From NCBI GenBank assembly GCA_043798555.1, contig JAZDOO010000406.1, forward strand, positions 1-56,441: a stretch of DNA of 56,441 nucleotides, in the 5' to 3' direction. Below, one piece after another: positions 7,801 to 56,441 of this stretch. The stretch's first letter is position 1. Every line of letters starts with the position of its first letter. The DNA comes from Pseudomonadota bacterium. Lineage in GTDB: Bacteria > Desulfobacterota > WTBG01 > JAGOGO01. Made by a program: the position numbers and the translations under genes. The notes beneath the pieces were generated by a model, which ran no database searches, had not been told where the DNA came from, and saw nothing but the letters and a program-made list of their open reading frames with translations.

Positions 7801-8075
7801 TTAATCTATAGAAGTGGCATTGCGAATCGCGGTGCGGTGAAGGGTATCGAAATCCTTGAAGGGGATACTTTCGTCTTTCTCCTTCAGCTTTGCAGCGTCC
7901 GTCGGAGAATGGCGGAAAGCCGGGGGGGGGCAAAACGCCACTTCCGCCTCTTTTGGGGTAATGGTCTTCTTCAAAACCTCTAAAAACTCATCACTCTGGG
8001 GATACCCCAGATTTCTACCTTTCCTAAGTGCTTCATGAGCTTTAGATAAACTTCAGTTTCCGCTTATCTCTCCAT
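7801..8075 (-). pseudogene. Decayed, internally deleted paralogue of the Cys-rich ferredoxin-domain gene at 8126..9238
   Basis: Hand translation gives MER*AETEVYLKLMKHLGKVEIWGIP, then, after a 1-nt shift in the G4 run at 7998..8001, QSDEFLEVLKKTITPKEAEVAFCPPPAFRHSPTDAAKLKEKDESIPFKDFDTLHRTAIRNATSID*. The first part aligns to residues about 6-45 of the neighbour (YHNLMKHLGNVGIGYPQMGKDDFIKVLRKKITPEEAEIA). The last part aligns to its C-terminus (HCPTGAAKVKEKDESVPFPDFTTLHHTAL). The junction sits at a G9 run (7922..7930). Confidence 0.7.
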
Positions 8076-8125
8076 GTATTTGGCAAGGATAACGATAGAA
8101 AGCTGTCTACTTATTTAAAGGTAGT

Positions 8126-9238
8126 TCAGCCTTCTTTTCCTTTACCCACATCCTGAAGAGCAGTATGGTGCAACGTAGTAAAATCGGGGAAAGGAACACT
8201 TTCATCTTTTTCCTTCACCTTAGCCGCGCCAGTCGGGCAATGAAGAAGGCACACTCCACATCCTATGCAAATACTCTCATCTACGACTGGTTTATCATCT
8301 TTAATGGTGATGATTTCGAGCGGACAATCATCAGCACATTGCCCGCAGCCAGTGCATGCTTCCTCATCAGTTGTCCTAAGGTAATATGTGGCCATCATGG
8401 AATCCCGAGGAACTAAGCGATTTTTGATAGGCATGGTAAAACAACAACAGCAAGAGCAACAATTGCAGTTGTGCTGAATTTCACCTTGACAATTATCCAC
8501 AAAATGGATTAACCCTTCTTCCTCTGCTTTTCTTGTGATCTCGAGAGCCTCCTCTCTTGAAATCTCTCGGCCTAATCCATGCTCTAAGGCATAATCGGCC
8601 ATCTTGTTAAACTTGATACAATTTTCTAAGGAGTGTTTACATTTTGTATCAAAAAAAAGCTTTCCCGCCATTCGACAAGGACAATGACAAACAGCAATCC
8701 TTCTTGCCCTCTGTATTACCTCCTTCATCATGTCATAGCTATAGACCGCTGTCACAGATCGGTCTACAGCCAGATTAACGGGAACATAGCGAAACAAACG
8801 TACATTTTTCGTGTTTTGGGCATCCCACCCTCCTTCTTTGAGGTACTTGTACATGGGCCGGGCTATCTCTTCCTTGACGTGATCATCAGGTTCCCCCTTC
8901 CACATGAAAAGCTGGGGGATTCCAAACCCTATTTGGATAAAGGCGTAACCGGTTTTGCCTAAGGCTGTTTTTTGTTTGAAAAGAAACCCCTTCTTGGCCA
9001 GCCCCGCCAGAATTTCTTCAACTTTATCCGCTGGTTTTCCAATCCGGCGGGCAATTACCTCTACCTCCTCCACTTCAAAGGGTGGCAAACGGGTCGGAAG
9101 ACCAAGCGCTATTTCGGCTTCCTCTGGTGTGATCTTTTTCCTCAGAACTTTTATAAAATCATCTTTACCCATCTGAGGATATCCTATTCCTACGTTTCCT
9201 AAATGTTTCATGAGATTGTGATAAATATCCTGTCCCAT
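8126..9238 (-). CDS. Cys-rich iron-sulfur protein with C-terminal 2x[4Fe-4S] ferredoxin domain
   Basis: 370 aa. The C-terminus has CTGCGQCADDCP and CIGCGVCLLHCP (a dicluster ferredoxin). Upstream are CHCPCR...C...C and the run CNCCSCCCC (8441..8467). The N-terminal 90 aa looks like a small helical or winged-helix module (KKITPEEAEIAL...LAGLAKKGFLF). RBS GAGGAGG. Confidence 0.7.
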   Translation of the reverse strand: MGQDIYHNLMKHLGNVGIGYPQMGKDDFIKVLRKKITPEEAEIALGLPTRLPPFEVEEVEVIARRIGKPADKVEEILAGLAKKGFLFKQKTALGKTGYAFIQIGFGIPQLFMWKGEPDDHVKEEIARPMYKYLKEGGWDAQNTKNVRLFRYVPVNLAVDRSVTAVYSYDMMKEVIQRARRIAVCHCPCRMAGKLFFDTKCKHSLENCIKFNKMADYALEHGLGREISREEALEITRKAEEEGLIHFVDNCQGEIQHNCNCCSCCCCFTMPIKNRLVPRDSMMATYYLRTTDEEACTGCGQCADDCPLEIITIKDDKPVVDESICIGCGVCLLHCPTGAAKVKEKDESVPFPDFTTLHHTALQDVGKGKEG

Positions 9239-9359
9239 AAAATCCTCCTCTCAATAAGTAAAATGATAAGAGACGTAAACAAGCTCCTAAGTGTCTCTGC
9301 GAGACCCTCTTTGGCCGGTCAGCAGAATAAAACCCCGAGCATATTGATTTGATGCCCTA

Positions 9360-11541
9360 TCAAATCTTTTCTACCTGACAGAGAAGCGCTTTTAGAACCG
9401 GAAAGCCAGAGATGGGATCGCGATTCTGGTCATCTGTGAGCAGGTTCACGTTGCTTTCTCTCCACCCTTCAGCCTGGATGGGTGATCCGCCTCCCATATT
9501 CACATCCACCACCCCTTCAAAGATATCGTCAGTAACGCGCGCGGTAAATTCCGCCTCTCCTCGCATCGTTTTTACCCGAACTGTATCACCCGTGGAAATA
9601 TTTCGCGGATGAGCATCCGTGGGGTGGATAAGCACCTCGGCATGAGGTTGCAACTTCAGAAGTCCGGGGATATTGAGGTGTTGGCTCCTAAACGTGGATT
9701 GGATTCTTGTCCCTGTGGTCAGGGTCAAGGGATGATCGTTTACCAGGTTCAAATTCTGGGGTCCTTCCTTTACTTCCTCATAAGTGGGGAGGTGATCATA
9801 CCCGTACTCTTTTAGCACAGAAGAGCTGATCTCCCATTTTCCCGACGGGGTTGGAAACCCCAGCTTTCCATCGGGGCGGAGTTTTCCTGAGAGCCATTTC
9901 TTTTCCTCGTCTTCTTTGGCTGCGGGGGAGGAAGGTTTAGAGGGATCTTCCAGTAGAATGGGGCCTTTTTCAGACCGGTGTTTGAACTCTTCCAAACCAA
10001 AGGGGAGAGGGCAATCACGTATCGAACCATTTCTTCTTCGCTCTGGGGATATAGGTGCCCGTACTCAAGCCTCTCCGCCAACTTGGCGTAAATTAAGTAG
10101 TCATTCATTGCCTCCCCAAGGGGCTCAATTATTTTTTTTCGATACTGGAGTGCCAGTGGAGGAGCAAGCGCAGGATAACCACAAAAGGAGGCGATTTCGT
10201 AATAAGTAGTTGCGGGGAGAACGATGTCAGCGTAAAGCGAGTCGGCATTGAGAAATCTATCCACCGAAACTTGATAGTCCAGCGCTTTGAGCGCTTGAGT
10301 GAAAAGGGTGGGATTGGGAAAGCTGGTTAAAATGGAAGCTCCCCCGACGAGAAGAAAGCGGATTTTATAGGGGTCTTCGTTGAGGACGGAACGGGGAAAG
10401 TCCATGAATTGTCCGCTTTGAAATGTTTTGCAATAGTAGGGGTAGGTATCCATCCCAATAGGGGACACCTCAGTGGGAAACAGTACCTCTGGCTTCCGCA
10501 AGGGTACACGAGGAGGAAGCTGGAAACGCTGACCCCCCTTTCCACATCGAGATGACCAGTCAAAGCCCAGAGCGTCAAAAGGGCGCGTATAGACTGGACT
10601 CCAGAGTTGGAATACTCTAACCCGGTGTAAGAAAGAAAAGCAACTCGCTTTGATGAGGCTAATATGTCAGCTAATTCAACAATGGTTCTTGCCGGGACAC
10701 GGGTAACAGTCTCGATCCGTTCCAGTTGAAATTGTTGCACATATTCTTCCAGTTCTAAAAATCCCTCGCAGAATTTCTCCCCAAATTCGCGATCAACGGT
10801 GCCATTGTTAAAGCATTGGTACAAGATACCATTAATGAGTGCCCCATCGGTTCCCGGCTGGATGGGAACCCACAGATCCGCCATTTTAGCCGCGGGAGTA
10901 TGTAGCGGATCAACGGCAATGATCCTGGCGCCTCGCTTCTTAGCTGCCTGGAGGCGAACCATCCTGGTAATGGGAGAATCCGTGGCGGGATTAGTTCCCC
11001 AGACAAAAATGACCTCGGCATTTTCCAGGTCAGGCTGGAGTATGCTTATACCTGACCCAAAGGTTGTATAGGGAGCTAAGATACCATAAGAATGAAAACA
11101 GATACTTCCCACTGAAAAAGCATTAGGGGAGCCAAGGGGCATGAAGATTGAGTTCCCAATAGCATACCCCTCTTTCTTGGGAGAAAACATTTGCCAGAGC
11201 GATTGTTCAAAATTCCCCCGGCCAAAAAAAGAAGCGATGCACTCAGGGCCGTATTGACTCTTCAAAGTAAGAATTACTTTAGCAATCTCATCAAAGGCCT
11301 GATCCCACAAGATCTCTGTGAAGGCGAGAGTCCCCTTAGGCCCGCTTCGTTTTAGCGGCCTCCTAAGGCGATCGGCTGAATAAACAATTTCGGGTGCATG
11401 GCGGCCCCGGACACACGGGATTCCCTGAATGTGGCCTTTCCAAGGATGAACTGCCACAATACGATCATTTTCTAAACTGATTTCTACGCCACAGTTGGCA
11501 GGACAAATACCACAAATACCCTTCTCAATTCGTTTGGACAT
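9360..11541 (-). pseudogene. Molybdopterin (bis-PGD) oxidoreductase, cytoplasmic type, interrupted by two 1-nt frameshifts
   Basis: Three overlapping track ORFs (10327..11553, 9812..10501, 9360..9995) carry, in order, the N-terminal [4Fe-4S] motif CGICPANCGV....C, the middle PGD-binding region, and the C-terminal molybdopterin-dinucleotide beta-barrel (VLIHPTDA...GDTVRVKTMRGE). All three are colinear with the intact paralogues at 15820..17910 and 27378..29588. The frame changes are at the C6 run 10533..10538 and at the G runs 10002..10011. The likely start is the ATG at 11541 (MSKRIEKG). Confidence 0.8.
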
Positions 11542-11639
11542 TTTTGCAACCACCTTTTAGCTCGTAGCTTGATTCCAAATTAATCTTGCAGTATAAGGCA
11601 ACTTAACACGCAAGTAGGTTCTTGGAGCTTATCACTGTC

Positions 11640-11743: not shown

Positions 11744-12631
11744 CTACATTTTTGTTGGTTTAAGAGACTTCTGGCCCTTAGCTCGATTTATTTCGGCAAT
11801 AGGATTTTTCCCTGCTACCCAATTTGTATGCTTGGCATAAATCTCGTAATCGTGCCCTGGTATAATTCTCCGTAAATCTCCGCCCACAGCTTCCTTCACT
11901 TTGTCGTAGAGAAAGAGTAGGTTAAACGAGTCCCCTTGACCATATCCAGGAGGCCACATATTTTCTATGTTGGCATACCAGTATATAGCGTCTCCAGTTA
12001 TAGCATAGGGTCCGTTCTGGGTTGAGACTTTCCACCAGCATGAGCCAAAGGTATGGCAACGGGTAGCCAGATTGGCAATTATTCCAGGAAATACTTCTAC
12101 ATCACCTTCTAGCAATGTGACTCGCCCCTCAACTTCTGCTTTAGCTATGGAGATAATATCGTTAGGCTCAAATGATGAATAAATCCACGGGATGTCGCCA
12201 GGCTTGAACTTTGACGGAAGGTTTACAGCCATAGACCACCCGTTAAACTCTTCTCGTTGGATATAAATCTGTGCCTTTGGAAAATCCTCGATCTGATTTA
12301 TGTGGTCAAAATGCATGTGGGTAACAAATATAGCCTCGATATCTTCTGGTTTTACACCTACTTTACCAAGAATAGTTGTTGGATCCTCCCAGTCGTAAAA
12401 AGGATATCTTTCAAACCATACGGGAGCCTTGAAGCCGCAGTCAACCAAGTACAAGTGATCTTCCCCAGGTAACCCTCCCCTGATTAACGTGTAATGCATG
12501 GCAATTGTCTGGTTACCTTGATTGCTCATGATGCCAGATCCACCAAAGAAATCCTTTGCCATATCCGCCTTGGCATAACAAAGACTCCATAGTGAATAGT
12601 CTGCCTTGGTTGTAAATATATTTACCATCAT
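11744..12631 (-). CDS. MBL-fold metallo-hydrolase (lactonase-like)
   Basis: 295 aa. The metal motif is FVTHMHFDHIN (HxHxDH), with a later PGHD. RBS AGAGGAAGGG. Confidence 0.75.
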   Translation of the reverse strand: MMVNIFTTKADYSLWSLCYAKADMAKDFFGGSGIMSNQGNQTIAMHYTLIRGGLPGEDHLYLVDCGFKAPVWFERYPFYDWEDPTTILGKVGVKPEDIEAIFVTHMHFDHINQIEDFPKAQIYIQREEFNGWSMAVNLPSKFKPGDIPWIYSSFEPNDIISIAKAEVEGRVTLLEGDVEVFPGIIANLATRCHTFGSCWWKVSTQNGPYAITGDAIYWYANIENMWPPGYGQGDSFNLLFLYDKVKEAVGGDLRRIIPGHDYEIYAKHTNWVAGKNPIAEINRAKGQKSLKPTKM

Positions 12632-12918: not shown

Positions 12919-13659
12919 CTAAGGGATTGTCGCCTTGTCTATGAGGTCAGCTTCGTGAATTGGCACTATCATATCTGCAAGTTTTTTCACCCTCTCCACA
13001 CTTTCGTATGCTTGCAGTGCATTCAAGTTGATACCAGGTGCGATCAAGGGCATTCGGTCTTTAATCGCTGGCGGAGGGTCAAAGTTCTCCCGAATACAAC
13101 AGAAGCCAGCAATGATGGCTGTGCCTTGATTGGTGTTTATAGCTACGGATTGAGTTCCCGCGCTATGTCCCGGGGTTAGCAGAAGCTCTACTCCGTCATC
13201 TACCCTCGTGTCTCCTTCAACCACCCTAAACTGCAACCCCACGAGCAATTCTCTGTAATCCGCTGGCCACATCTGGGCGATCATAGGGTGTGGGTTACGG
13301 GCAAACTGGATCTCCGCCTCTTGGACAATCACTTCGGCTCTGGGAAATTCATGAGCTAGATAAAAATGATCATGATGAAGATGGGTAGCAATAATGAGAT
13401 CTACATCACCAACGGTGAGCCCCACCCTGCTAAGCCCATCGGCTAAACTCTGTATGGGTTCTACCTTATAACCGCGTTTGATAAGCCTCTCTGGTGTTAT
13501 GCCGGCATCTACAATTATAGTCCTTTCCCCGCCTTCCAAAAACCAGACATAGATAACAATAGGAATCGTCTCCCCGAAATTCATCAAGTACGTCATCTTA
13601 GGTTTAGGGAATTCCACTTTCATCAGAGGGATAGGGTGGATAATATAATTTCGTGGCAC
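12919..13659 (-). CDS. MBL-fold metallo-hydrolase (N-acyl-homoserine-lactonase-like)
   Basis: 246 aa. Motifs are IIATHLHHDHF and TPGHSAG. GTG start with AAGGAG upstream. Confidence 0.75.
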   Translation of the reverse strand: MPRNYIIHPIPLMKVEFPKPKMTYLMNFGETIPIVIYVWFLEGGERTIIVDAGITPERLIKRGYKVEPIQSLADGLSRVGLTVGDVDLIIATHLHHDHFYLAHEFPRAEVIVQEAEIQFARNPHPMIAQMWPADYRELLVGLQFRVVEGDTRVDDGVELLLTPGHSAGTQSVAINTNQGTAIIAGFCCIRENFDPPPAIKDRMPLIAPGINLNALQAYESVERVKKLADMIVPIHEADLIDKATIP

Positions 13660-13974: not shown

Positions 13975-15624
13975 CTATAGAACGTAGACTACCATGTTAT
14001 CTCCATCAACCCTGATCCTTTGCCCGGTCTTGATCTTTTTCGTCCCCTCGAGTGTGCCAGTGACAACAGGGATGCCAAACTCCCGCCCCATAATAATAGC
14101 ATGTGACATACCCCCACCCATATCGGTAACTACGCCGCTGACTATATGAAAAACGGCGATCCAAGGAGCAGCTGTAAACGGAGCCACCAGGATTTCTCCT
14201 AGCTGTACCTTAGCGAGATCGCTTTCATTCATTACTACTCGAGCATTTCCCTCCACAATGCCAGGGGCTCCGCCGGCGCCACAGATGTGAGCCATAAAAT
14301 TTGGCCGAACTTTACGAGATGCTCCAACTACCCCAATTAGGGGGTCTTTCTTTACCAATTGATCAAGCTTCGCTATCTGACCAAGAAATGGCGGCGGCTC
14401 GACCTTGAGTGCTTTGTGCCACTCCTCTTTGCGCCATCGGGCAAGCCGACGGTAGTCAACCCTTTCCAAGGGGACGATCGCCTTTCTTATCTCCCACGGC
14501 ATTAGCATAAAGACATCAAACGGCTCATCAATTACTCCCGCACGGGCAAACCTCTTACCGACTTCCCAAATCACTTTACGCGTTACCGCATTTTGTGCTA
14601 ATTCACAATAAGGCGTATGGTCTTCGCTCCACGAGGCAGACATCTCTGCCGCCTTCAATAACTTGCCAAACCATTCTTTTTTCTGCATGGGCACCTTTGC
14701 CATGACCGTACTCTCTGCCTGCTCCCTTTCTTTAGCCAGACGCTCCCTTTCGACATCGGGGGCAAAAGCCTCTTTGGCTATCGTTCGCCTTATGTCCGGT
14801 AGCCCCAAACTTGGCTGCTCAATCCAAGACGGAGTCGCCCAATCCACCATGCGCTGACATCTCCAACCTCGAGACTTAAGGAATTCCAAGTATTCAGTGA
14901 GCCACTTTCTGCCAGAATCGCTTGACTTGAGTTGGGCCATTAGTTGCTCGTCATCGACAGTTGCCGTGAAAAGGCCAGCAAGCCCCATTTCATCCGCCTT
15001 CTTGCCAAGAAGCCACATTTCCTTACTTATTTGAAATAGCGTATTGTCGAAGCCACTTCTCAGTTTATTGTGTATCGGATCATCAGGCTTAATCCCTATG
15101 AACTCCTCACAGGCGCTGGTAAAGAGCTGATCAATGCTGTATAGCCCATACTGCCAGTAAAAGTGTATTTCGTGGACCTTGAGAAAGACGTCCCAGACCT
15201 CAAAAATCAACTCCCGGAGTTTGCAGGCACTCACCGTCTCAATATCCACCTCCTGGATGTTCCTGTAAAGGCTCCAGATTCGCCCTCGATCTCGATTCCA
15301 GTTACCTTCAGGGTCCTCTAGTAATGCTGACATTCGCTCCTGGAAATGCTTTCCCCGGGACAGAACCTCCTCAGGTTTGGGCTCTATGGCCGTGATATAG
15401 ACATAACCATTATGGATCTTCCACTCCCAACCTTTGGTCTCAGGGCATGACAACAGCTCTGCAGCGTGCTGCATGCCATAAGAAGTCAACTCGCAGAACA
15501 TGAACGCGTAAAGCGGAGTCCATGCCGGATACCCATGAACTACATCGCAGATCCACACTGTATAATTCTTAAGGTCCACTTCTTCGTCTAACACAACCCC
15601 GGTCAAACCGTAGTCAATAGGCAT
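13975..15624 (-). CDS. Phenylphosphate-synthase alpha-like protein (PEP-utilising enzyme, mobile phosphohistidine domain), second copy
   Basis: 549 aa. The C-terminus GAPGIVEGNARVV...ILVAPFTAAPW...TDMGGGMSHAIIMGREFGIPVV...DGDNMVVYVL is a PEP-utiliser swivel domain with the His motif. The N-terminal region is colinear with the 618-aa copy at 21166..23019. Confidence 0.7.
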   Translation of the reverse strand: MPIDYGLTGVVLDEEVDLKNYTVWICDVVHGYPAWTPLYAFMFCELTSYGMQHAAELLSCPETKGWEWKIHNGYVYITAIEPKPEEVLSRGKHFQERMSALLEDPEGNWNRDRGRIWSLYRNIQEVDIETVSACKLRELIFEVWDVFLKVHEIHFYWQYGLYSIDQLFTSACEEFIGIKPDDPIHNKLRSGFDNTLFQISKEMWLLGKKADEMGLAGLFTATVDDEQLMAQLKSSDSGRKWLTEYLEFLKSRGWRCQRMVDWATPSWIEQPSLGLPDIRRTIAKEAFAPDVERERLAKEREQAESTVMAKVPMQKKEWFGKLLKAAEMSASWSEDHTPYCELAQNAVTRKVIWEVGKRFARAGVIDEPFDVFMLMPWEIRKAIVPLERVDYRRLARWRKEEWHKALKVEPPPFLGQIAKLDQLVKKDPLIGVVGASRKVRPNFMAHICGAGGAPGIVEGNARVVMNESDLAKVQLGEILVAPFTAAPWIAVFHIVSGVVTDMGGGMSHAIIMGREFGIPVVTGTLEGTKKIKTGQRIRVDGDNMVVYVL

Positions 15625-23019: not shown

Positions 23020-23132
23020 CTTTATTCTCTCCTCTTTCAATCTTTCAATATTAAACCCCAGTCTAGTACTACAGCGCCGGTTAGTTGACATTTAATATAT
23101 TTTATGAAGATAAAGTACTATTGAATGCGAGC

Positions 23133-26210: not shown

Positions 26211-26268
26211 TAGTAAAGTAAAAAAGCCGTCATTGAAAACCCTTTTGGGGTCTTTAGGAGGGATACAA

Positions 26269-36870: not shown

Positions 36871-36891
36871 ACCTTCTCCTCCCATCAATGA

Positions 36892-43058: not shown

Positions 43059-43064
43059 AGAGTC

Positions 43065-45559: not shown

Positions 45560-45571
45560 TGAGGAGCGAAG

Positions 45572-47635: not shown

Positions 47636-47645
47636 GAGTACCTCA

Positions 47646-48599
47646 ATGTCTCGGGTTAAGAACGAGTGTCTCAGGAAAGGTAAGCTTTTTGTCCCGATAA
47701 TCTTTTCGTTCGGTGCGGGGCTAGAAAACTTACCTTTGAAGGAATTCTTGGAGGACCCAACAAAGATTTCCAATTCCCTCCGAACGATCCATAACTATTT
47801 TCGCGTTGATGGTGTGGTTTGCGCTGATAAGACAATCTTACCTGAGGCCCTCGGATGTCATGTTGACTGGAGCAAATCCCCCCCCTTAATCCAACCCTCG
47901 TCAGCGAAAATAGATGAATTGGGTACCTGTGCGACGAACCTTTTTGAAAAAGGACGGGTGAAGACCGCTGTAGAAGTGACGCGAAGGCTCAGCATTCTTT
48001 TACCCGAAGCTTTCTTGATGGGTTTAGTTACAGGGCCATTGACACTGGCTGGCCAACTCACAGGACTCTCAGAAGCTGAGATTTTTGGTCATCGAGATCT
48101 CTTATCAATAACCAGTAATGCAATACTTACCTATTCTAAAGGTCTTTGCGACGCAGGTATTGACCTCCTTCTTTTTTCAGAAAGAGAGCTTCCGGGTTTA
48201 GACGAACAATCCCTAAAACAGTTGCGCCGATGTTATTCCCCGATCTGGAATACGGTTAGGTTCTATGAGGCTTTCCCTCTCCTGATGGTCGAAAACTTCT
48301 CACCGGAAGATGTCAACCTCATTAGTAAGGTTGTGGACGACCTAATCTTACCTGGTGGCTACGTTCCCGATAACTTGCAAAAGTTTAAGAGACTTTCGTT
48401 CGCTTTACCCGTTTCATTGCTTGAAAATGAGCCCGAAGACATTGAATCTTTTCTCGTAAAAAGCAGCATTGTCGCTGCCTTGAATTCTTCGACTCTCTTT
48501 CTATTGACAACCGACTCTGAGGTCCCCGGAAGCATTCATAAAGAATTTTTGATCAGAGGAGTTCAATCGATCAGGGACTTCCTGAAAAAAGGACCATAG
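47646..48599 (+). CDS. Uroporphyrinogen-decarboxylase (URO-D/MtaA)-fold family protein
   Basis: 317 aa. FLEDPTKISNSLRTIHNYFRVDGVVCADKTILPEALGCHVDWSKSPPLI follows the URO-D family N-terminal pattern (accessory helix, D..., ..EA.G). It starts 10 nt after the HyuB stop. Confidence 0.5.
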   Translation: MSRVKNECLRKGKLFVPIIFSFGAGLENLPLKEFLEDPTKISNSLRTIHNYFRVDGVVCADKTILPEALGCHVDWSKSPPLIQPSSAKIDELGTCATNLFEKGRVKTAVEVTRRLSILLPEAFLMGLVTGPLTLAGQLTGLSEAEIFGHRDLLSITSNAILTYSKGLCDAGIDLLLFSERELPGLDEQSLKQLRRCYSPIWNTVRFYEAFPLLMVENFSPEDVNLISKVVDDLILPGGYVPDNLQKFKRLSFALPVSLLENEPEDIESFLVKSSIVAALNSSTLFLLTTDSEVPGSIHKEFLIRGVQSIRDFLKKGP

Positions 48600-48773: not shown

Positions 48774-50120
48774 ATGAATATTACTTTGGAGAAGGCTACG
48801 GAAACCTTTAAGAAAAAGTTCAAAAAATCAGGGGGACTATGTGAGAGGGGGAGCAAATGGATTCCTGGAGGGTACAGCAGACATAGTCTTACCTTTGGGC
48901 CGCACGCTATCTATGTGGATCATGGGGAAGGCCAGTTCATTTACACGGTGGACGGGCATCGATTGCTTGACTTTCACAATAATTTTAGTTGCAGTGTCCT
49001 TGGACATAACCACCCCAAAATTAGACAGGCCCTGCTGGAATTAGTTCCGAGGGGGTTTTCTTTCGGCAACCCGATGGAACATGAGCACCGCTTAGCAGAG
49101 ATAATTTGTGAGCGGATCGAGTCGGTGGAGAAGGTTATATTTTCGTGTTCTGCAAGTGAGTCATGTCTCAGCGCGATTCGAATAGCCAGGGGAAATACCG
49201 GGAAAGACAAGATTGCTAAATTCGAGGGAGGTTATCATGGTATGGGTGATGAGTTTATGTTGTCACTCCATCCTTACCCGTACTTTTTCAGGGGTCCGGC
49301 AACTCGACCGATAGGATGGCCAAATACTGCGGGGATTCCATCGCATATTCAGCAAAATGTAGTTATTTTACCCCAGAACGATCTCGAAAGTTGTGAGCGG
49401 ATCCTGAAGGATGATGCTAAAGACTTAGCCTGCGTTATAATCGAGCTCCAGACAAGTGCGGGTGGTGCAATGGTGATGGAAAAAGAATTCGTGCATGGGC
49501 TTCGAGCAATTACTCAAGAGTTAGGTATCCTCCTGATTATAGATGAGACTGTGACCTTACGTACCTTCTATCACGGCATGCAAGGCTTCTATGGAGTCAA
49601 GCCCGATTTAACGGTGATGGGGAAAGTAATAGGGGGCGGTTTACCAATAGGGGCGGTAGGGGGACAGGAGAAATATTTCCATATGCACGAAACCGGGAAA
49701 GTCTATCACTCAGGTACTCATCATGGCCATCCCCTTGCAACTGCCGCTGGTATTGCCTGTATGGAAGTACTGGATGAGGTGACGTGTAATCGTATCAATA
49801 AAATGGGAGACCGACTTGCGCATGAACTCAACACCTGGGCTACTGAGAATACTTATCCATTTTATGTAATCGGTCATGGAGGTCATTTAGGATACGAATT
49901 TACCGATAAGCCAGGAAGAGTCTACCGGTCATGCCGTGATATGTTGGAGTATTCTAATGAAGAGCGTATGGCGACGTTTGCCTTTGAAATGGCAAATCGT
50001 GATATCTTCCCAATGTATCGAGGACTGATTGCTCTGTCAGAGCCAATGAATGATAATGATATTGACCTTTTTATCAATACCAGCAAGGAGCTTGTAGAAG
50101 GTATTCTTGCCGCTTCGTGA
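48774..50120 (+). CDS. Class III PLP aminotransferase, glutamate-1-semialdehyde aminomutase-like
   Basis: 448 aa. Motifs are LLDFHNNFSCSVLGHNHP and LIIDETVTLR, with the Schiff-base Lys in MGKVIGGGLPIGAVGG. RBS AAGGAGG. Confidence 0.8.
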   Translation: MNITLEKATETFKKKFKKSGGLCERGSKWIPGGYSRHSLTFGPHAIYVDHGEGQFIYTVDGHRLLDFHNNFSCSVLGHNHPKIRQALLELVPRGFSFGNPMEHEHRLAEIICERIESVEKVIFSCSASESCLSAIRIARGNTGKDKIAKFEGGYHGMGDEFMLSLHPYPYFFRGPATRPIGWPNTAGIPSHIQQNVVILPQNDLESCERILKDDAKDLACVIIELQTSAGGAMVMEKEFVHGLRAITQELGILLIIDETVTLRTFYHGMQGFYGVKPDLTVMGKVIGGGLPIGAVGGQEKYFHMHETGKVYHSGTHHGHPLATAAGIACMEVLDEVTCNRINKMGDRLAHELNTWATENTYPFYVIGHGGHLGYEFTDKPGRVYRSCRDMLEYSNEERMATFAFEMANRDIFPMYRGLIALSEPMNDNDIDLFINTSKELVEGILAAS

Positions 50121-50273
50121 GTTACATGCCAAGGGCTGATGAAAATTAGTTAAAGAAGGTAGTAAACCAAGATTTGCCTTTTGGTCTGAAGAAGGCTATA
50201 ATTTTGAAAAAAGGAAGCCTAATCAAGGTGCCGAGCCGAGTGATTAAGCTTGGGCATAAAAGGGAGGAAGAGC

Positions 50274-51602
50274 ATGCAAGAATATGGAAAATACTGGAAC
50301 GAACGCCTGGAAAGGTTGTCGCTGGAAGAATTCCATGAGGTCCAAGAAAAGGCGCTCTTGAGACAGCTTAAGTACGTAGGGGAGAATTCTGCTTTTTATC
50401 AGAGGAAATTCCGTAAAGCTGGACTTAAATTAGGAGACGTGAGAAGACTTGAAGACTTATCCAAGCTTCCCTTCACCGAGAAAAGTGAACTTCGTGACAG
50501 TCAAATGGAGAGTCCTCCTTTGGGTACTCATATTAGCTGTCCTATGAGCAAGGTAAAGAGGATATATTCCACGAGTGGGACTACTGGCAGGCCAACTTTT
50601 ATAGGCCTCACCGAGCATGACATAGATATGTGGCGTGAGACCGCTTGCAGGTCATTTTGGACTTGTGGACTCCGTGCTGATAGCATTGTGCCGCTCGTCG
50701 TGGCCCCCTTTTTAATAGCCGCCTCATACGCAGACGCTCTGCAAAAAATCGGTATGGTCGTTCCTATAGGAGTGGGAGCGACTGAAAGACTTATTGGGAC
50801 CTTTCAGTATATTGGGGCCAACGCCCTTTTGTCTACTTCCTCTTTCCCCTTACATTTTGCTGACTCCCTTGAGAAAAGAGGCATCGAACCAAAAAGCCTG
50901 GGGATTAAAATAATAGTGGCTGGAGGTGAGCCTGGGGCAGCTATTCCATCGGTCCGTCAGAAAGTTGAAGATATCTTCGGCTGCATATTCCTCGAAACGA
51001 TGGGAAACGGGGACATGTGTGGCCAAATGTGGGCGGAATGCGAATATAAACAGGGAATGCACTTCATTGCCCAAGGAATTGTTCACCCAGAAATAGTCGA
51101 CCCTGATACGGGCGAGGTGTTAGATATAAGGGAGGGAACTAAGGGCGAGTTAGTCTACACTGCTCTTGAGCGAGAGTGTATTCCCTTGGTTCGCTTTAGG
51201 ACGCGGGATCATATCGAAGTCACGCAGACAACGTGTAAGTGTGGGCGAACAGGATTTGGCATACGTGTTTTCGGGAGAACGGATGACATGATTATTGTTC
51301 AAGGAGTTAATGTATATCCTGCGGCAGTTCGGGATATAGTAGCAAGTTTAGCTCCTCGAACAACTGGTATTATCGAGGTTCAGTTATACGCTCCTCCTCC
51401 AAAAGGATGGGAGCCACCGATTCACATAAAGGTAGAATACGGGGAAGAGTCAGGGGATTTGGGTTCTCTCAAGAAGGAGACTGAATCTTTGATAAGGGAA
51501 AATCTAATCTTTCGTGCTGATGTTGAGCTAGTACCGGCAGGGAGCCTGCCGAGATACGAATACAAAGCTAAGTTAGTAAGAAAGCTGTATGAGAAAAAAT
51601 AG
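50274..51602 (+). CDS. Phenylacetate-CoA ligase (PaaK)-family CoA ligase, second copy
   Basis: LERLSLEEFHEVQEKALLRQL...FYQRKF is the N-terminal pattern and STSGTTGRPTF the nucleotide loop. The start is set at the ATG at 50274, behind GGGAGGAAG. Confidence 0.75.
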   Translation: MQEYGKYWNERLERLSLEEFHEVQEKALLRQLKYVGENSAFYQRKFRKAGLKLGDVRRLEDLSKLPFTEKSELRDSQMESPPLGTHISCPMSKVKRIYSTSGTTGRPTFIGLTEHDIDMWRETACRSFWTCGLRADSIVPLVVAPFLIAASYADALQKIGMVVPIGVGATERLIGTFQYIGANALLSTSSFPLHFADSLEKRGIEPKSLGIKIIVAGGEPGAAIPSVRQKVEDIFGCIFLETMGNGDMCGQMWAECEYKQGMHFIAQGIVHPEIVDPDTGEVLDIREGTKGELVYTALERECIPLVRFRTRDHIEVTQTTCKCGRTGFGIRVFGRTDDMIIVQGVNVYPAAVRDIVASLAPRTTGIIEVQLYAPPPKGWEPPIHIKVEYGEESGDLGSLKKETESLIRENLIFRADVELVPAGSLPRYEYKAKLVRKLYEKK

Positions 51603-51727: not shown

Positions 51728-53815
51728 ATGGGCAATAAAGGATATGCGGTTGGAGTAGATATCGGAGGGACATTCACAGATTTAGTCGCGATAGACGAAG
51801 AAGGAAATAGAACGGTCATTAAGACACCCAGTACCCCAGAAGATCCTTCTCTCGGAATGGTTAACGCACTCAAATTGGCAGCCGAAAGTTTAGAGATAGA
51901 TTTCAGTGAATTCTTAGGGAAGGTTTCGAGGATCTGCCATGGAACAACGGTCACGACCAATGCGGTCATTACTCGTTCTGGAGCCAAAATGGGCATGCTT
52001 ACCACAAAAGGGGTGAGAGACACGATAGAAGTCCGCCGAGGAATGAGAGAGCTCGAATACTTATATGATTACACATACTCCCAGCCTGAGCCATTATGTC
52101 CAAGAAATTTGAGAATCCCCATCGAAGAGAGGGTACAAGCTGATGGTTCAGTATATATTCCATTGAACGAGGATCAGGTTCGTAATGGAATAAAAAAATT
52201 TAGAAAAGAAGGGGTAGAGGCAATAGCAATCTGTTTTCTGTGGTCCTTTAGAAATCCAAGACATGAGCTGCGGGCAGCGGAGATATGTCGAGAGGAATTT
52301 CCAGAAGCTTACCTAAGTCTTTCCCATGAAGTTGCTCCAATCTTAGGAGAGTATCTCCGATTTCAGTCCACAACGATAAATGGGTACGTAGGTCCTATCA
52401 TCAAAAGATATATGACCTCTATGCGAAAAACACTGAATGATGCCGGGTATAAGGGGGCACTCCTCATTGTAACTTCCAGTGGAGGGGTGATGAGTCCTGA
52501 GGCAATTATGGAAAAAGCTGGCGTTACCCTGACGTCAGGTCCGGCAACTGGTCCGGTCGCTGGCATCTGGTATGGAGATCTTTACGGCATTGGCAGTTTA
52601 ATAACCATGGACATGGGCGGTACTAGCTTTGATACTTCTCTGGTCAAGAATCGGGAGATCTCAATTAGAGCTGGTCAAGTAGTGGCAGGAGTTTACCATA
52701 TTGGCTTACCCACAGTAGATGTTCATGCTATCGGTGCTGGCGGAGGAACTGTCGCCTGGTTGGATGAGGCAGGGGGAATCCATGTGGGGCCTCAAAGTGC
52801 CGGAGCTGATCCGGGGCCGGCTTGCTATATGAAAGGGGGTACAGAACCTACCGTCACCGATGCCAATTTAGTGCTGGGACGGTTAAACCCCGATTATTTT
52901 GTAGGTGGAAAGATCAAACTAAACAAAGACGCTTCAATAAAGGCCATTAAAAAAATTGCCGAGCCTAAAGGCATGACAGTGGAAGAAATTGCGAGGGCAA
53001 TTATCACTATTGCTGTTGTGAATATGACTGATGCTACCGAGGTCATAACAATTCGGCGAGGTGAAAATCCAAAAGATTACGGATTGCTTGTTGGTGGAGG
53101 AGCAGGCCCAGGCCATGCAGCTCAACTTGCTAAGACATTAGAGATTAAAAAGGTCATCATCCCTAGAGAATCTTCCATTTTCTGTGCCATGGGAGGAATT
53201 ATCTCGGATATTAGACATGATTATATTACCAGTTTAGAAACGCCCACTGAGGAGTTAGACTGGCGAAAAATAAATAACATAGTGAAAAGCATGAAAGCTG
53301 ACGCAAATAAAATGTTGACTGAAGAGAATGTCCCCATAGAAGAACGGTCGTATAGATTCTCTGCGGATATGAAATATATCGGGCAGTATCACGAAATCGA
53401 TGTCCAATGGCCTGATAAACAGAACTTCGCATATTCAGAAAAGGACATACCTGAAATTGTCGACCGGTTTCATGAAAGGCATGAGACCCTCTATGCCCAC
53501 CGCGATGAGGAAGGAAAAACATTTACTTCAAATCTTAAGTTAGCTGCTTTCGGTCACGTATCAAAAATAACGGCCAGGTTGATGCCTATTGGTGATAAAG
53601 ATACCAGTAAATACCAAAAAGGTACCCGCGATGTTTGGTTTGAAGAAACAGGCTTTACCCCCACACCAATCTATGATGGTGATGCCATGTTGCCAGGAGT
53701 GAAAGTTAAAGGACCTTGTGTCATTGAGCAAAGGACAACTACTATCGTTGTTCCACCTGAACACAGTGTTGAGGTTAGTGAATATGGAGATTTTATGATG
53801 AACGTACCAGTTTAG
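51728..53815 (+). CDS. Hydantoinase/oxoprolinase A (HyuA)-family ATPase subunit (second module)
   Basis: 695 aa. Motifs are VGVDIGGTFTDLVA and TMDMGGTSFD. Confidence 0.8.
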   Translation: MGNKGYAVGVDIGGTFTDLVAIDEEGNRTVIKTPSTPEDPSLGMVNALKLAAESLEIDFSEFLGKVSRICHGTTVTTNAVITRSGAKMGMLTTKGVRDTIEVRRGMRELEYLYDYTYSQPEPLCPRNLRIPIEERVQADGSVYIPLNEDQVRNGIKKFRKEGVEAIAICFLWSFRNPRHELRAAEICREEFPEAYLSLSHEVAPILGEYLRFQSTTINGYVGPIIKRYMTSMRKTLNDAGYKGALLIVTSSGGVMSPEAIMEKAGVTLTSGPATGPVAGIWYGDLYGIGSLITMDMGGTSFDTSLVKNREISIRAGQVVAGVYHIGLPTVDVHAIGAGGGTVAWLDEAGGIHVGPQSAGADPGPACYMKGGTEPTVTDANLVLGRLNPDYFVGGKIKLNKDASIKAIKKIAEPKGMTVEEIARAIITIAVVNMTDATEVITIRRGENPKDYGLLVGGGAGPGHAAQLAKTLEIKKVIIPRESSIFCAMGGIISDIRHDYITSLETPTEELDWRKINNIVKSMKADANKMLTEENVPIEERSYRFSADMKYIGQYHEIDVQWPDKQNFAYSEKDIPEIVDRFHERHETLYAHRDEEGKTFTSNLKLAAFGHVSKITARLMPIGDKDTSKYQKGTRDVWFEETGFTPTPIYDGDAMLPGVKVKGPCVIEQRTTTIVVPPEHSVEVSEYGDFMMNVPV

Positions 53816-53844
53816 AAAAATTTAAGGGAGGAGGTAATATAATT

Positions 53845-55626
53845 ATGAAAGTAAAAGATATGATACAAACAAGGATAGATCCTTTAGATTTTGAGGTAAT
53901 TAGCTGTGGGTTGAGGTCTGTTACTGAACAAATGACAGCAACAATGGAGCGAACAGCCCGTTCCCCTGAACATTTTGCAGGGCGAGACTATTCTATAGGA
54001 ATATTCGATAATAAGGGAAATACGGCTGCGATCTTTGAAGGCAACCCTATCCATGTTTATGCAATCCCTTTTTCGGCCAGGTCAGTGATAAAATTCTTCG
54101 GGGATGATTTAAGACCTGGGGATCAAATCTGGACAAATGATCCCTACTTCATTACTGGTAGCTGTGGCAGTCACTTACAAGATTGTACTATGTTATGCCC
54201 GGTCTTCTATAAAGATGAACTAATATTTTGGGCGGCTAATAGAGCCCATCAGGCAGATGTGGGTGGGTCGGTTGCAGGCGGTTACAATCCATCGGCAACC
54301 GACATTTATACTGAGGGAGTCCGGTATTCGCCGGTTAAAATTATGGAAAATTACAAAATCAGAAAAGATGTCTTCCATCTTCTCCTCTCAAACATGAGGT
54401 TTGCATATAAACAGAGGGGAGATTTACTTGCCATGATGGGATCAAACAGAAAGGGAGAAGAGGGCATGCTCAAAGTTATTGAACGGTATGGCCCAGAAAC
54501 GATTAGGACGTACCTCGAAGATTTATATGATTATAGTGAAAAGTTATTGCGAATTGAAATAGAGAAGTTACCTGATGGAACGTATTATGGTGAAGCGAAA
54601 GGTGAAGGCGGCCCTCGCTGCCCGCTGTTTACTGTGCGTGCTAAAGTCACTATTAAGGGGAGTGATATAACCATTGATTTCAGTGAGTCAGACCCCCAGG
54701 CACCAAGCTACATTAACAGTCCCTACTGTAATACGGTGAGCGCCAGCTGGATTGCATTGCTCACCACAGTGGGGAAGAAAATCCGTTATCTATCACAAGG
54801 GATAGAACGACCGGTGAAGATTATCACCAAACGAGGTACAGTGGTTGACCCAGTGGCCCCTGCACCAGTGAGTGCATGTACAAATTTTGCTGCCAAGCAA
54901 GTACTCAGTTCTATTTGGGTTGCCCTCGCTCAGATCGCTCCAGAAATTACTCCGGGTGGGTGGGGGACGATACCTTTTGAAATAATTACTGGTACCGACC
55001 CGAAGAAAGACAATGCCCCTTACGGTTCAATCGACTTCTTGACGTGCGGAAGTGGAACCGGAGCGATATGGGGAGTAGATGGTTGGGCTACCGGTACCCC
55101 GGAGATATGTAGTGGGACCCTCCATTATCCTGATATAGAATATTATGAAGACTTTATGCCCAATCGCTGGGATGTCTGGGAGATAGAACAAGACTCAGGT
55201 GCACCTGGGAAGTGGCGGGGGGGATTAGCTATGAGGACAGTCATTACTAATATTGGTGGTGAGGGATGGATTCACTCCGGTGGTCAGGGCTTTAAAGAAG
55301 AAACGAAGCCGGTTCCGGTTATTGCCAAAGGGAAACAACCCGAGCCGGTTAAAAGGTGGATTAAAGAGCCTGACGGATCAATAACTGATGCAAATGACTG
55401 TATTAGTTATCCATGGCATCCTGGCGCGGAGATGACCGTTATTTGCCAAGGAGGGTGCGGAGTAGGAGACCCTTTTGAGAGAGATGTCAAAAAAGTAAGA
55501 AAAGATGTAATTGAAGAAAAAGTATCGATAGGAGCGGCGAAAAGAGATTATGGGGTGGTGATTGACCCGGACACCTCGGAAATAAATTATGAAGAAACTG
55601 AAAAGACCCGTTCTTCGAGAAGATAA
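53845..55626 (+). CDS. Hydantoinase B/oxoprolinase (HyuB)-family subunit (second module)
   Basis: 593 aa. Motifs are GDQIWTNDPYFITGSCGSHLQD and CQGGCGVGDPFERD. RBS GGGAGGAGG. Confidence 0.8.
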   Translation: MKVKDMIQTRIDPLDFEVISCGLRSVTEQMTATMERTARSPEHFAGRDYSIGIFDNKGNTAAIFEGNPIHVYAIPFSARSVIKFFGDDLRPGDQIWTNDPYFITGSCGSHLQDCTMLCPVFYKDELIFWAANRAHQADVGGSVAGGYNPSATDIYTEGVRYSPVKIMENYKIRKDVFHLLLSNMRFAYKQRGDLLAMMGSNRKGEEGMLKVIERYGPETIRTYLEDLYDYSEKLLRIEIEKLPDGTYYGEAKGEGGPRCPLFTVRAKVTIKGSDITIDFSESDPQAPSYINSPYCNTVSASWIALLTTVGKKIRYLSQGIERPVKIITKRGTVVDPVAPAPVSACTNFAAKQVLSSIWVALAQIAPEITPGGWGTIPFEIITGTDPKKDNAPYGSIDFLTCGSGTGAIWGVDGWATGTPEICSGTLHYPDIEYYEDFMPNRWDVWEIEQDSGAPGKWRGGLAMRTVITNIGGEGWIHSGGQGFKEETKPVPVIAKGKQPEPVKRWIKEPDGSITDANDCISYPWHPGAEMTVICQGGCGVGDPFERDVKKVRKDVIEEKVSIGAAKRDYGVVIDPDTSEINYEETEKTRSSRR

Positions 55627-55751
55627 AGGAATTTACTCATAAAATTTGTGTTCGTAGGTTAGTTAACTTATACCTCATATTATTCACATTATACACATTG
55701 AAGGAGTTATTTCCTTCTGTCAATCAATCGTTGAACGAGGGGAATTGTGCC

Positions 55752-56441
55752 ATGGCAACTAAAAGTAAGTATAAAAAACTATTCGAGCCAGGCTTAATAG
55801 GAAATTTAGAGGTTGCTAATCGTATTGTTAAATCTCCCTTGACTACCGGAATGGGCAATATCGATGGGACCTTAAATGAGCGAGTAATAAGACACTATAG
55901 GGAGATGGCCCGAGGAGGAGCTGGCCTGGTGGTAGTGGAGTCTTCCTGGGTCGATTTTCTCGGCAGCAAGCCGGGATGCCAAGGTATGCTTGGAGTTGCG
56001 GACAATCAACATATCCCTGGGTTAATGTGGCTAGCCCGGACGATCAAAGATAACGGGGCGAAAGCCGCCCTCCAGTTAGAACACGCCGGGAGGCAAAAAA
56101 TGTTGGGAAACCCACCTATAAAAGCACCATCCCGGGTGCCGTGGGAGGAAGCAAAGATGATGGGGTTTCCTGTTCCGGAAGAACTCACTTTCGAAGAGAT
56201 TGAAGGGGTCATAGAGGCATTCGGAGATGCGGCCCTTCGCACTCAAATGGCTGGCTTTGATCTGGTCGAGCTTCAGGGCGCCCACGGATATTTAATCACT
56301 AACTTTCTTTCTTCCCGGACGAACAAACGTACCGACTGGTACGGAGGTAGCTTAGAAAACCGGATGCGTTTTTTACTCGAAGTCATAGCCAATATTCGGA
56401 AAAAGGTCGGGTCGAATTACCCTTTAAGCGTAAGGTTAAGC
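55752..56441 (+). CDS. Old Yellow Enzyme / 2,4-dienoyl-CoA-reductase-type FMN oxidoreductase (5' part; runs off the right edge)
   Basis: Hand translation from the ATG at 55752 gives MATKSKYKKLFEPGLIGNLEVANRIVKSPLTTG...ALQLEHAGRQ...GFDLVELQGAHGYLITNFLSSRTNKRTDWYGGSLENRMRFLLEV. It stays in frame to the last base. It is absent from the ORF track because it has no stop. Confidence 0.8.
   Translation, partial: MATKSKYKKLFEPGLIGNLEVANRIVKSPLTTGMGNIDGTLNERVIRHYREMARGGAGLVVVESSWVDFLGSKPGCQGMLGVADNQHIPGLMWLARTIKDNGAKAALQLEHAGRQKMLGNPPIKAPSRVPWEEAKMMGFPVPEELTFEEIEGVIEAFGDAALRTQMAGFDLVELQGAHGYLITNFLSSRTNKRTDWYGGSLENRMRFLLEVIANIRKKVGSNYPLSVRLS

Follow-up and report, generated by a model that had tools for sequence, protein, structure and literature searches.

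The window analyzed here, a 56,441-nucleotide (nt) stretch of Desulfobacterota DNA, is an entire contig (JAZDOO010000406.1, GenBank assembly GCA_043798555.1) of a metagenome-assembled genome (MAG). It carries a Pps-type aryl kinase encoded with a UbiD-family carboxylase, acetylene-hydratase (AH)-like molybdenum/tungsten (Mo/W) enzymes, a four-gene envelope cassette, an Apc-type ketone carboxylase, a second hydantoinase-family (HyuAB) pair, and two PaaK-type CoA ligases. The original prediction, made from the nucleotide sequence, held that these genes look like one recently assembled and still evolving supra-operonic unit, which may serve the anaerobic degradation of a substituted aromatic compound that needs both ring and side-chain carboxylation. 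Listing of open reading frames (ORFs), together with Pfam, NCBIfam and PDB searches, recovered its whole gene inventory at the positions reported, including control by a LysR-type protein and by a PAS kinase with a NarL-type partner. The window proteins run approximately from MFH0814395 to MFH0814425 and bear generic annotation names. For one block, the nearest relative with a name comes from a MAG of an uncultured delta proteobacterium; with a Desulfovibrio Mop-type aldehyde oxidoreductase in the left flank, this makes a sulfate-reducer-like anaerobe of the Desulfobacterota type the most likely host. Comparison with related loci points to a mosaic of separately inherited units rather than to a single one.

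A UbiD-HAD-168 triad encoded with a Pps-type kinase

In the left half of the window, a run of genes from ubiD to ppsB, with internal gaps of at most 105 nt, diverges from a gene for a LysR-type regulator (26176..27246, plus strand; Pfam HTH_1 and LysR_substrate); elsewhere in this half, the gaps between genes are 120-420 nt. The first gene of the run encodes a full-length, PhdA-like UbiD-family (de)carboxylase (24502..25938, minus strand; Pfam UbiD_N/UbiD/UbiD_C), which we propose as a carboxylase subunit. Its best PDB match is the phenazine-1-carboxylate decarboxylase PhdA (7PDA, 365 bits), and it fails both NCBIfam models for phenylphosphate carboxylase: the alpha model gives 157 bits where 565 are required, and the beta model 244 where 469 are required. 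Alignment shows that the protein retains 'GTYR' and 'EGPFGE'; the arginine and the EGPFGE glutamates are features of decarboxylases dependent on prenylated flavin mononucleotide (prFMN), as in the Fdc1 motif.

The next gene encodes a divergent HAD-fold protein of 247 amino acids (aa; 23653..24396, minus strand; weak Pfam HAD matches), proposed here as the phosphatase partner of UbiD and an analog of PpcD and AcvF. HAD phosphatases carry D-x-D in motif I. The window protein keeps the nucleophile, Asp12, and the GDKxSTD of motif IV, and has glycine at the Asp+2 position, in an invariant D-x-G. Its sole NCBIfam match is a weak one to TIGR02253, and a PDB sequence search found no detectably related solved structure. 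The third member of the triad is a 168-aa orphan protein (23133..23639, minus strand) that matches no Pfam or NCBIfam family. Its own family is very small (of 1.84 billion cluster representatives, 71 match at E<=1e-3), and many of these relatives have an N-terminal extension of about 45-50 residues; a single-sequence AlphaFold2 model of the window protein had a mean pLDDT of 48.8 and was unusable.

The kinase genes follow. PpsA641 (21166..23091, minus strand) is a PpsA-type phospho-histidine/substrate subunit with a PEP-utilizers domain and the His motif 'CHAAIVARE' (NCBIfam PRK08296.1-5, 737 bits against a cut-off of 578), and a gap of 13 nt separates its gene from that of a PpsB-type ATP-binding subunit (20082..21152, minus strand; Pfam PPDK_N, 281 bits). 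A swivel-His PpsA-type subunit thus adjoins a PPDK_N-containing PpsB subunit, as in phenylphosphate synthase, and the pair is a putative aryl kinase; swivel-His phosphotransfer is the mechanism described for proteins 1 and 2 of Thauera. Beyond ppsB lies PaaK466 (18261..19661, minus strand), a PaaK-type, putative aryl-acid CoA ligase with AMP-binding and AMP-binding_C_2 domains that scores 194 bits against TIGR02155 (cut-off 646).

All three of the closest UbiD relatives for which context is available (L008, L009 and L010, with 74%, 79% and 78% UbiD identity) carry the complete triad, the HAD-like protein being 72-79% identical and encoded directly downstream of UbiD, and the 168-aa protein 54-60% identical and syntenic. 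A LysR homolog (50-51% identical, in divergent orientation) stands beside the triad in L009 and L010, a PpsB homolog in L008 (53%) and L010 (40%), and PpsA in one of the three, L010. A RidA gene lies directly upstream of the triad in L010, and the window has another. At three alphaproteobacterial MAG loci (L014, 3231-11431; L016, 4936-11434; L020, 936-7989), a PhdA-like UbiD that is 37-40% identical to the window enzyme lies 3-5 kb from a HyuAB-like pair, a possibly recurrent association of UbiD with the hydantoinase family; L014 also carries a short-chain dehydrogenase/reductase gene, an Amdase-like gene and a TctC receptor gene.

An Apc-type ketone carboxylase block with its own two-component system

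The right half opens with genes for a PAS-PAS-HisKA_3 histidine kinase and a NarL-type response regulator (38571..40791, plus strand; Pfam), which lie upstream of a set of acetophenone-carboxylase-type genes (41070..48599, plus strand) composed of apcABCD (41070-47635) and an Apc-epsilon-like gene with a uroporphyrinogen decarboxylase (URO-D) fold (47646-48599). Gene order and sizes in apcABCD(E) match the description of the Apc family, and the gaps from apcA to apcE are at most 12 nt. The best NCBIfam matches of the subunits are ApcA, ApcB, ApcC and ApcD, and the Apc scores fall below the equivalog cut-offs (609 against 1250, 194 against 250, 1059 against 1500, 1068 against 1500, and 61 against 450); ApcD scores 977 bits against 5L9W_A, the delta chain of the solved acetophenone carboxylase. 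These matches point to an ATP-dependent ketone carboxylase of the acetophenone-carboxylase type.

Between apcE and the right-hand CoA ligase gene lies a class-III aminotransferase gene (48774..50120, plus strand; Pfam Aminotran_3) whose product resembles glutamate-1-semialdehyde aminomutase (GSAM). Its PDB neighbors (GSAM, 6K8H, D-phenylglycine aminotransferase, and transaminases of the beta-phenylalanine and beta types) place it in an aminomutase-like subgroup; an assignment as housekeeping HemL was rejected on the TIGR00713 score (287 bits, below the cut-off of 527). No transaminase gene occupies this position in the 27 related Apc loci, indicating a lineage-specific insertion. As a hypothesis, the transaminase could convert beta-phenylalanine to benzoylacetate, which is also what Apc makes. 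The ligase itself, PaaK450 (50250..51602, plus strand; best PDB matches PaaK 4R1L and 2Y27), would be the counterpart of benzoylacetate-CoA ligase, and with PaaK466 it bears out the expectation of one PaaK-type ligase in each half.

A ligase 46-60% identical to PaaK450 follows apcE in L025, L037-39, L041 and L042, and PaaK450-like ligases occur at eight of the 27 Apc loci if a fragmentary match in L049 is counted. The epsilon-like gene follows apcD at 15 of these loci, and homologs of the NarL regulator and of the kinase lie directly upstream of apcA at seven and six of them, respectively. A second, gamma-less Apc-like set (ApcA 32-33%, ApcC 50% and ApcD 45% identical) was seen in marine and freshwater metagenomes at L028 (1766-8200), L034 (2-5800) and L042 (348-6600); it stands in tandem upstream of a complete apcABCDE in L028 and L042, and the L034 contig holds just apcA of the downstream operon.

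Left-half and right-half blocks occupy separate loci in relatives

Which blocks travel together was assessed with a tblastn matrix of all window proteins against 57 related loci, with flanks of 10 kb. The left-half set comprised Pps, UbiD, the HAD-like protein, the 168-aa gene and the AH-like Mo enzymes, and the right-half set comprised Apc, the epsilon-like gene, the transaminase and the close HyuAB clade. At none of the 57 loci did a left-half gene share a locus with a right-half gene. Apc, HyuAB and envelope genes are absent within 10 kb of UbiD in L008-L010 (0/3), and Pps, UbiD, the HAD-like protein, the envelope genes and the AH-like Mo enzyme are absent from the Apc loci (0/27). As far as these 57 loci reach, the test of co-occurrence proposed with the original prediction went against it: within 10-kb flanks, relatives carry the blocks separately, and not as one supra-operonic unit needing ring and side-chain carboxylation. 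Each half, moreover, is adjoined by a separate regulator, which relatives keep together with the block concerned, and the halves are divided by a remnant of an insertion sequence (IS) and by a cassette whose G+C content at third codon positions (GC3) is deviant.

The IS remnant is a degraded IS630-type transposase gene (29821..30859, plus strand), with Pfam matches to HTH_32/HTH_29/HTH_33 on 29821-30348 and an out-of-frame DDE_3 fragment on 30671-30859, and it sits at the border of the envelope cassette. GC3 is 0.56-0.62 in the cassette versus about 0.42 (0.40-0.46) in the genes next to it and 0.38-0.48 in most other window genes, with sharp shifts in composition at 31.4 kb and 38.0 kb. This heterogeneity supports a mosaic origin; the locus is indeed a cluster of mixed composition, and its genes are of kinds typical of the anaerobic breakdown of aromatics.

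The further claim that mobile-element scars and decaying duplicates mark the seams of the locus held in part. One IS630 remnant and one frameshifted Mo gene are present, and no other mobile-element trace was found in the window. A repeat search of the window detected neither inverted repeats nor direct repeats above 48 nt in length, and gave no sign of IS terminal repeats or of recent duplication at the DNA level; the histidine-kinase gene contains a direct repeat of 42 nt (76% identity; 39030-39071 and 39411-39452) that reflects the tandem PAS domains. A tRNA scan and an Rfam gathering scan of the window gave no match, and hence neither a riboswitch nor an integration-site tRNA. At the protein level, the two intact Mo enzymes (Mo696 and Mo736, described below) are 37% identical, the broken Mo copy is 27-39% identical to either of them, PpsA641 is 26% identical to a second PpsA-like protein (Pps549), the two ligases are 26% identical, and two metallo-beta-lactamase (MBL)-fold genes encode proteins that are 24% identical. 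Given these low identities and the lack of DNA-level repeats, we rejected recent duplication as the source of the pairs; by these sequence measures, the window paralogs are old and not decaying duplicates of one another.

Acetylene-hydratase-like enzymes lacking the catalytic aspartate

Two intact genes encode AH-like W/Mo enzymes of the bis-molybdopterin guanine dinucleotide (bis-MGD) class, Mo696 (696 aa; 15820..17910, minus strand; 398 bits against PDB 2E7Z) and Mo736 (736 aa; 27378..29588, minus strand; 460 bits against 2E7Z, full length). A third such gene (9360..11553, minus strand) is split into three overlapping ORFs, with Fe4S4, Molybdopterin and Molydop_binding domains, by two frameshifts at which the frame switches near 10530 and 10000. 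Because some 35 other genes of the window are intact, we regard it as a probable pseudogene rather than the product of random sequencing error. None of the three enzymes has a twin-arginine translocation (TAT) signal, so the predicted trio of cytoplasmic Mo/W enzymes stands, save that one copy is broken.

Mo696 and Mo736 align end to end with 2E7Z at 36-37% identity and keep the cluster cysteines and the metal ligand Cys141. At the position of the catalytic Asp13, both have histidine (CxxCH) and the broken copy has proline (CxxCP), and Ile142 of acetylene hydratase is replaced by Tyr, Phe and Phe in the three copies. Since Asp13 is missing, we rejected acetylene hydration as their activity and place them within the acetylene-hydratase clade without that function. 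The Mo696 family is large, with thousands of matches, of which the best 120 are at least 57% identical; relatives at 60-75% identity are abundant.

AH-like enzymes adjoin CoA ligases in the window and in L001, L008 and L055, and a tandem second AH-like paralog is present in L001 and L056. Mo696 and Mo736 probably take aryl acids or aryl-CoA esters as substrates. They might, attractively, strip off a para substituent once the ligase has acted, given that no 4-hydroxybenzoyl-CoA reductase is encoded in the window and that pyrogallol transhydroxylase offers a bis-MGD precedent; that enzyme moves phenolic hydroxyl groups. A literature search for links between AH-like enzymes and aromatic, UbiD or phenylphosphate systems returned reference-list coincidences only.

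The closest Mo696 relative (73%) lies at L001 (7139-22091) in a cluster with a PpsA-like protein, a creatininase, a major facilitator superfamily (MFS) transporter, a protein of the 168-aa family (34%) and an AMP ligase, and further with an OYE-FeS-flavin fusion (OYE, old yellow enzyme), a second AH-like enzyme, UbiX and an LpdD-type chaperone; no UbiD occurs within the 22 kb visible of L001. At L056 (306-10968), tandem AH-like enzymes, 67% and 37% identical to Mo696, have as neighbors an enoyl-CoA hydratase, a 3-hydroxyacyl-CoA dehydrogenase and a tungsten enzyme of the aldehyde oxidoreductase (AOR) type with Fe-S and FAD partners. At L004 (1-22094; also L005-L007), a 60% relative of Mo696 stands among URO-D-type methyltransferases, corrinoid Fe-S protein genes, a tripartite ATP-independent periplasmic (TRAP) transporter and FAD_binding_4/CCG proteins, a setting that looks like an O-demethylation context; a PAS-HisKA_3 kinase and NarL pair lies beside it, its regulator 38% identical to that of the window.

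Several further genes accompany the Mo enzymes. Pps549 (549 aa; 13975..15624, minus strand) is a distant PpsA paralog with a PEP-utilizers domain and an intact swivel-His motif, 'SHAIIMGRE'. A 30% identical homolog lies beside the closest Mo696 relative (L001-3), and the pairing of Pps549 with Mo696 may for that reason be meaningful. The two MBL-fold genes (11744..12631, 295 aa, and 12919..13659, 246 aa; both minus strand; Pfam Lactamase_B) have no homolog at the 57 related loci. The 246-aa ORF, which covers positions 5-148 of the 196-position Lactamase_B profile and is flanked by gaps of 290-315 nt, may be a truncated gene. A 370-aa Cys-rich protein (8126..9238, minus strand) has a C-terminal 2x[4Fe-4S] domain (Pfam Fer4 families at residues 291-338). 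It had been called the private Fe-S partner of the Mo enzymes; the protein is there, and the partnership is putative, since the protein adjoins only the broken Mo copy, forms a singleton cluster and has no homolog at any of the 57 loci.

Envelope cassette, lactamase-type pair and left flank

Between the two halves, four contiguous genes (31391..37989, minus strand; Pfam) encode a BNR/Ycf48-like protein, an MMPL-family resistance-nodulation-division (RND) protein, a DUF1302 protein and a DUF1329 protein, the four families that are co-encoded in tetrapartite HAE3-RND systems of the AmeABCD type. In Castellaniella, AmeABCD is encoded within the monoterpene island and provides tolerance to the substrate, and the same families are reported to be needed for fatty-acid and alcohol catabolism in Pseudomonas putida.

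Downstream of PaaK450, a HyuA/HyuB pair (51728..55626, plus strand) belongs by NCBIfam and PDB matches to the ATP-dependent lactamase type, in the branch of caprolactamase and 2-oxoindoleacetyl-CoA lactamase, with scores below the equivalog cut-off of 1000 (CapA 660 bits, CapB 370 bits) and 301 bits against 6YRA_B. A flavin reductase gene of the OYE family follows (55752..56441, plus strand; Pfam Oxidored_FMN, 190 bits), and this right-hand module is interrupted by the contig end. In the clade to which the pair belongs (relatives at 62-89% identity), HyuA and HyuB are always together and their settings are varied. Apc-like genes lie near the pair in L054, and aerobic oxygenase genes accompany it in L050 and L051. 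In L053, HyuAB is followed by a 3HCDH/ECH gene and then, some 2.3 kb downstream of the pair, by a gene of the OYE family whose product is 35% identical and has a Pyr_redox_2 domain. In L052, a 69-72% relative occurs in a cluster with B12-mutase, ligase and thiolase genes, followed by DUF1329/BNR/MMPL genes, that resembles the indoleacetate pathway.

The left flank (239-7781) is also catabolic, with genes for a GNAT protein, an MFS transporter, an aldehyde oxidoreductase, a glyoxalase-fold protein, RidA (5594-5983) and an FAD amine-oxidase-like protein (6204-7781), and the island may begin to the left of position 7801, where the original prediction placed its start. The 942-aa xanthine-oxidase-family protein encoded here (2257-5085) scores 485 bits against 1DGJ versus 290 bits against 1RM6; on these PDB scores it was identified as a Desulfovibrio Mop-type aldehyde oxidoreductase, and 4-hydroxybenzoyl-CoA reductase was rejected.

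Interpretation of the island

We favor, with a probability of about 60%, the reading that the island is a mosaic of at least five units that were inherited separately and are probably regulated separately, each of them a variant of a known system. The order of steps is in every unit deduced from the domains. In the first, PpsB would use ATP to phosphorylate the swivel histidine of PpsA, PpsA would phosphorylate an aryl-OH or aryl-NH2 group, the HAD-like protein would take off the phosphoryl group beside the prFMN-type UbiD, UbiD would place CO2 on the ring, and PaaK466 would form the CoA thioester. A second unit would comprise Mo696, Mo736, the broken copy, Pps549, the MBL genes and the Fe-S protein; its intact Mo enzymes would most likely modify an aryl acid or aryl-CoA, for instance by taking off or introducing a substituent on the ring or at the alpha position. 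The third, the RND cassette, would provide tolerance to, or traffic of, a hydrophobic substrate. In the fourth, an aryl methyl ketone would be converted to a beta-keto acid by ATP-dependent carboxylation and the product then activated with CoA, and the inserted transaminase would link an amine or beta-amino acid to the same keto intermediates. In the fifth, HyuAB would open a lactam ring with ATP, and the OYE-family enzyme would carry out an ene-reduction. The units would be neighbors because catabolic genes accrete in islands, and not on account of one shared substrate.

Several considerations weigh against this reading. The comparison extends to 10 kb of flank and includes few close relatives, and the nearest Apc relatives (60-82% identity) are on contigs of 4-5 kb. 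Single recurrences of associations across blocks were seen, of HyuAB with Apc-like genes (L054), of HyuAB with DUF1329/BNR/MMPL (L052), and of the UbiD triad with an AH-like Mo enzyme (L008). Scans for sigma-70 promoters and intrinsic terminators in both halves gave counts equal to those of shuffled controls and are uninformative on operon boundaries, so that transcription units are drawn from spacing only. Finally, AcvABCDEF couples a Pps-type kinase and a HAD phosphatase to a side-chain carboxylase, and on that precedent the two halves of the window could be functionally linked.

On an alternative view, which follows the original prediction, the whole island is a single pathway. Its substrate would be an acyl-phenol, an alkyl-phenol or an aromatic amine, with 4-hydroxy- and 4-aminoacetophenone as examples. 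In this scheme, Pps would phosphorylate the ring heteroatom, Apc would carboxylate the acetyl group, the HAD-like protein would dephosphorylate, and the ligases and Mo enzymes would lead to benzoyl-CoA. The Acv system of Sphingobium, in which a side-chain carboxylase works jointly with a PpsAB-like kinase and a HAD phosphatase on acetovanillone, speaks for this view. All blocks are clustered within 48 kb, each half has a PaaK-type ligase, and the Mo enzymes could fill the step for which the window offers no xanthine dehydrogenase (XDH)-type 4-hydroxybenzoyl-CoA reductase. Yet PpsAB and the HAD-like protein lie in a tight operon with UbiD and are co-conserved with it and never with Apc, the distribution given above, like the separate regulators and the IS remnant and deviant-GC3 cassette between the halves, speaking against a shared pathway; and side-chain carboxylation of an acyl-phenol would make ring carboxylation chemically needless, leaving UbiD without a role. 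We consider a single pathway quite unlikely. A more confined proposal, to which we attach similarly low odds, is that the left half alone encodes an undescribed route in which PpsAB feeds an aryl phosphate or phosphoamidate to a three-part UbiD-HAD-168 carboxylase and the AH-like enzymes then act on the aroyl-CoA. The substrate would be an aromatic amine or N-heteroaromatic compound, and the Mo enzymes would, for example, remove a para -OH or -NH2 group, replacing a xanthine-oxidase-type 4-hydroxybenzoyl-CoA reductase.

Nitrogen chemistry might instead unite the island, the modules serving as successive or alternative steps for anilines, N-heterocycles or lactams (compounds of the aniline, oxindole or quinolinone type) rather than as modules for phenols or ketones. 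The nearest characterized relative of the window UbiD, PhdA, acts on N-heteroaromatic acids, although the window enzyme fails models of both the phenylphosphate and the phenylphosphoamidate carboxylase type; Desulfatiglans anilini activates aniline by Pps-like and UbiD-like enzymes and over-produces a phenylacetate-CoA ligase on aniline. The RidA genes of L010 and of the window, the FAD amine-oxidase-like gene, the inserted transaminase, the amidohydrolase, creatininase and isochorismatase genes that flank relatives, and the HyuAB relative in the indoleacetate-like L052 cluster fit the same theme, whereas the Apc block is closest to a ketone carboxylase without nitrogen chemistry. All of these links are family resemblances, and the theme does not require the blocks to be functionally coupled; we judge it unlikely. 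That segments of different genomes were joined by misassembly or misbinning, at the IS remnant or at the GC3 shifts, is very improbable. The window is a MAG contig with an IS fragment at 29.8-30.9 kb and abrupt composition changes at 31.4 and 38.0 kb, but the IS copy is degraded and unrepeated in the window, and hence a poor substrate for misassembly, and strand organization and gene density are continuous. In addition, UbiD, the 168-aa protein and Mo736 recur in independent Logan assemblies, in copies that are identical or share 90% identity or more (on a longest contig of 6714 nt for each, possibly one shared contig), with ApcD on a contig of 9625 nt.

On the mosaic reading, the island as a whole deserves less weight than the leads offered by its components, and the idea of one new pathway probably matters less than they do. 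Only a handful of strains in culture are known to activate phenols, anilines and aryl ketones anaerobically, and the contig shows that uncultured anaerobes combine diverged versions of these systems. The transaminase within an Apc-type operon hints at metabolism of beta-amino acids or amines tied to ketone carboxylation. The AH-like W/Mo family is very large and recurs beside CoA ligases in aromatic-catabolic contexts; if the left-half route were true, it would supply the first function for a large uncharacterized enzyme family with thousands of metagenomic members.

Comparison with characterized systems

In agreement with the original prediction, literature searches found no described pathway with this exact gene set. 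Taken module by module, every part of the island has a close conceptual precedent and nothing in it is categorically new, and, judged by profile scores, no catalytic module reaches equivalog level with its characterized counterpart. The searchable literature has no description of two notable features, namely the coupling of the UbiD-HAD-168 triad to PpsAB and the AH-like enzymes without Asp13.

The latter share with acetylene hydratase of Pelobacter acetylenicus (2E7Z) an N-terminal [4Fe-4S] cluster, a cysteine metal ligand, a cytoplasmic location and a single subunit, and differ from it in a genomic context of aromatic or CoA-ester metabolism. The envelope cassette has the same four families as AmeABCD of Castellaniella defragrans (with an HAE3 RND protein of about 790 aa) and is likewise embedded in a catabolic island, but the order is C-D-A-B rather than A-B-C-D and the host is an anaerobe of a different phylum; the likeness is at the level of families. 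The HyuA/HyuB pair is shared with caprolactamase CapAB and with the predicted 2-oxoindoleacetyl-CoA gamma-lactamase, the window pair being sub-equivalog and followed by an OYE-family reductase.

With ApcABCDE, which carboxylates acetophenone at the expense of 2 ATP, and benzoylacetate-CoA ligase of Aromatoleum aromaticum, the right half shares the order apcA-B-C-D-(E) followed by a CoA ligase, and also an upstream two-component system, which is likewise reported for Aromatoleum. It departs from that system in strongly diverged alpha-prime and epsilon subunits, in a ligase of the PaaK type and in the inserted GSAM-like transaminase.

The left half is closest in logic to PpsAB[C] and PpcABCD of Thauera aromatica, in which genes for a UbiD-family enzyme, a HAD-fold protein and a CoA ligase likewise accompany those of a two-subunit His-phosphotransfer aryl kinase, and to the aniline counterpart in D. 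anilini (Pas-alpha/beta with Ppc-beta/beta2); phosphorylation, dephosphorylation, carboxylation and thioesterification would be common to all. The Thauera carboxylase has alpha and beta UbiD subunits, whereas the window has one UbiD, nearer to PhdA and failing the Ppc models. Its 247-aa HAD-like protein, with glycine at Asp+2, has no match to the delta model; AcvF and PpcD, too, have no significant similarity to each other. Ppc gamma has no window counterpart; the conserved 168-aa orphan stands in its place, possibly as an analog and not as a homolog, and neither PpsC nor UbiX is encoded in the window. The Acv system of Sphingobium sp. SYK-6 also encodes a PpsAB-like kinase and a HAD phosphatase with a carboxylase, and acts on a phenolic substrate. 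Its carboxylase (AcvCDE, with AcvAB and AcvF) is biotin-dependent and acts on the acetyl side chain, whereas the operon partner in the window is UbiD, and the window's side-chain carboxylase, of the Apc type, lies 15 kb away under another regulator. The UbiD-HAD-168 triad with its Pps-type kinase would thus represent a third kinase/phosphatase/carboxylase architecture, after Ppc and Acv.

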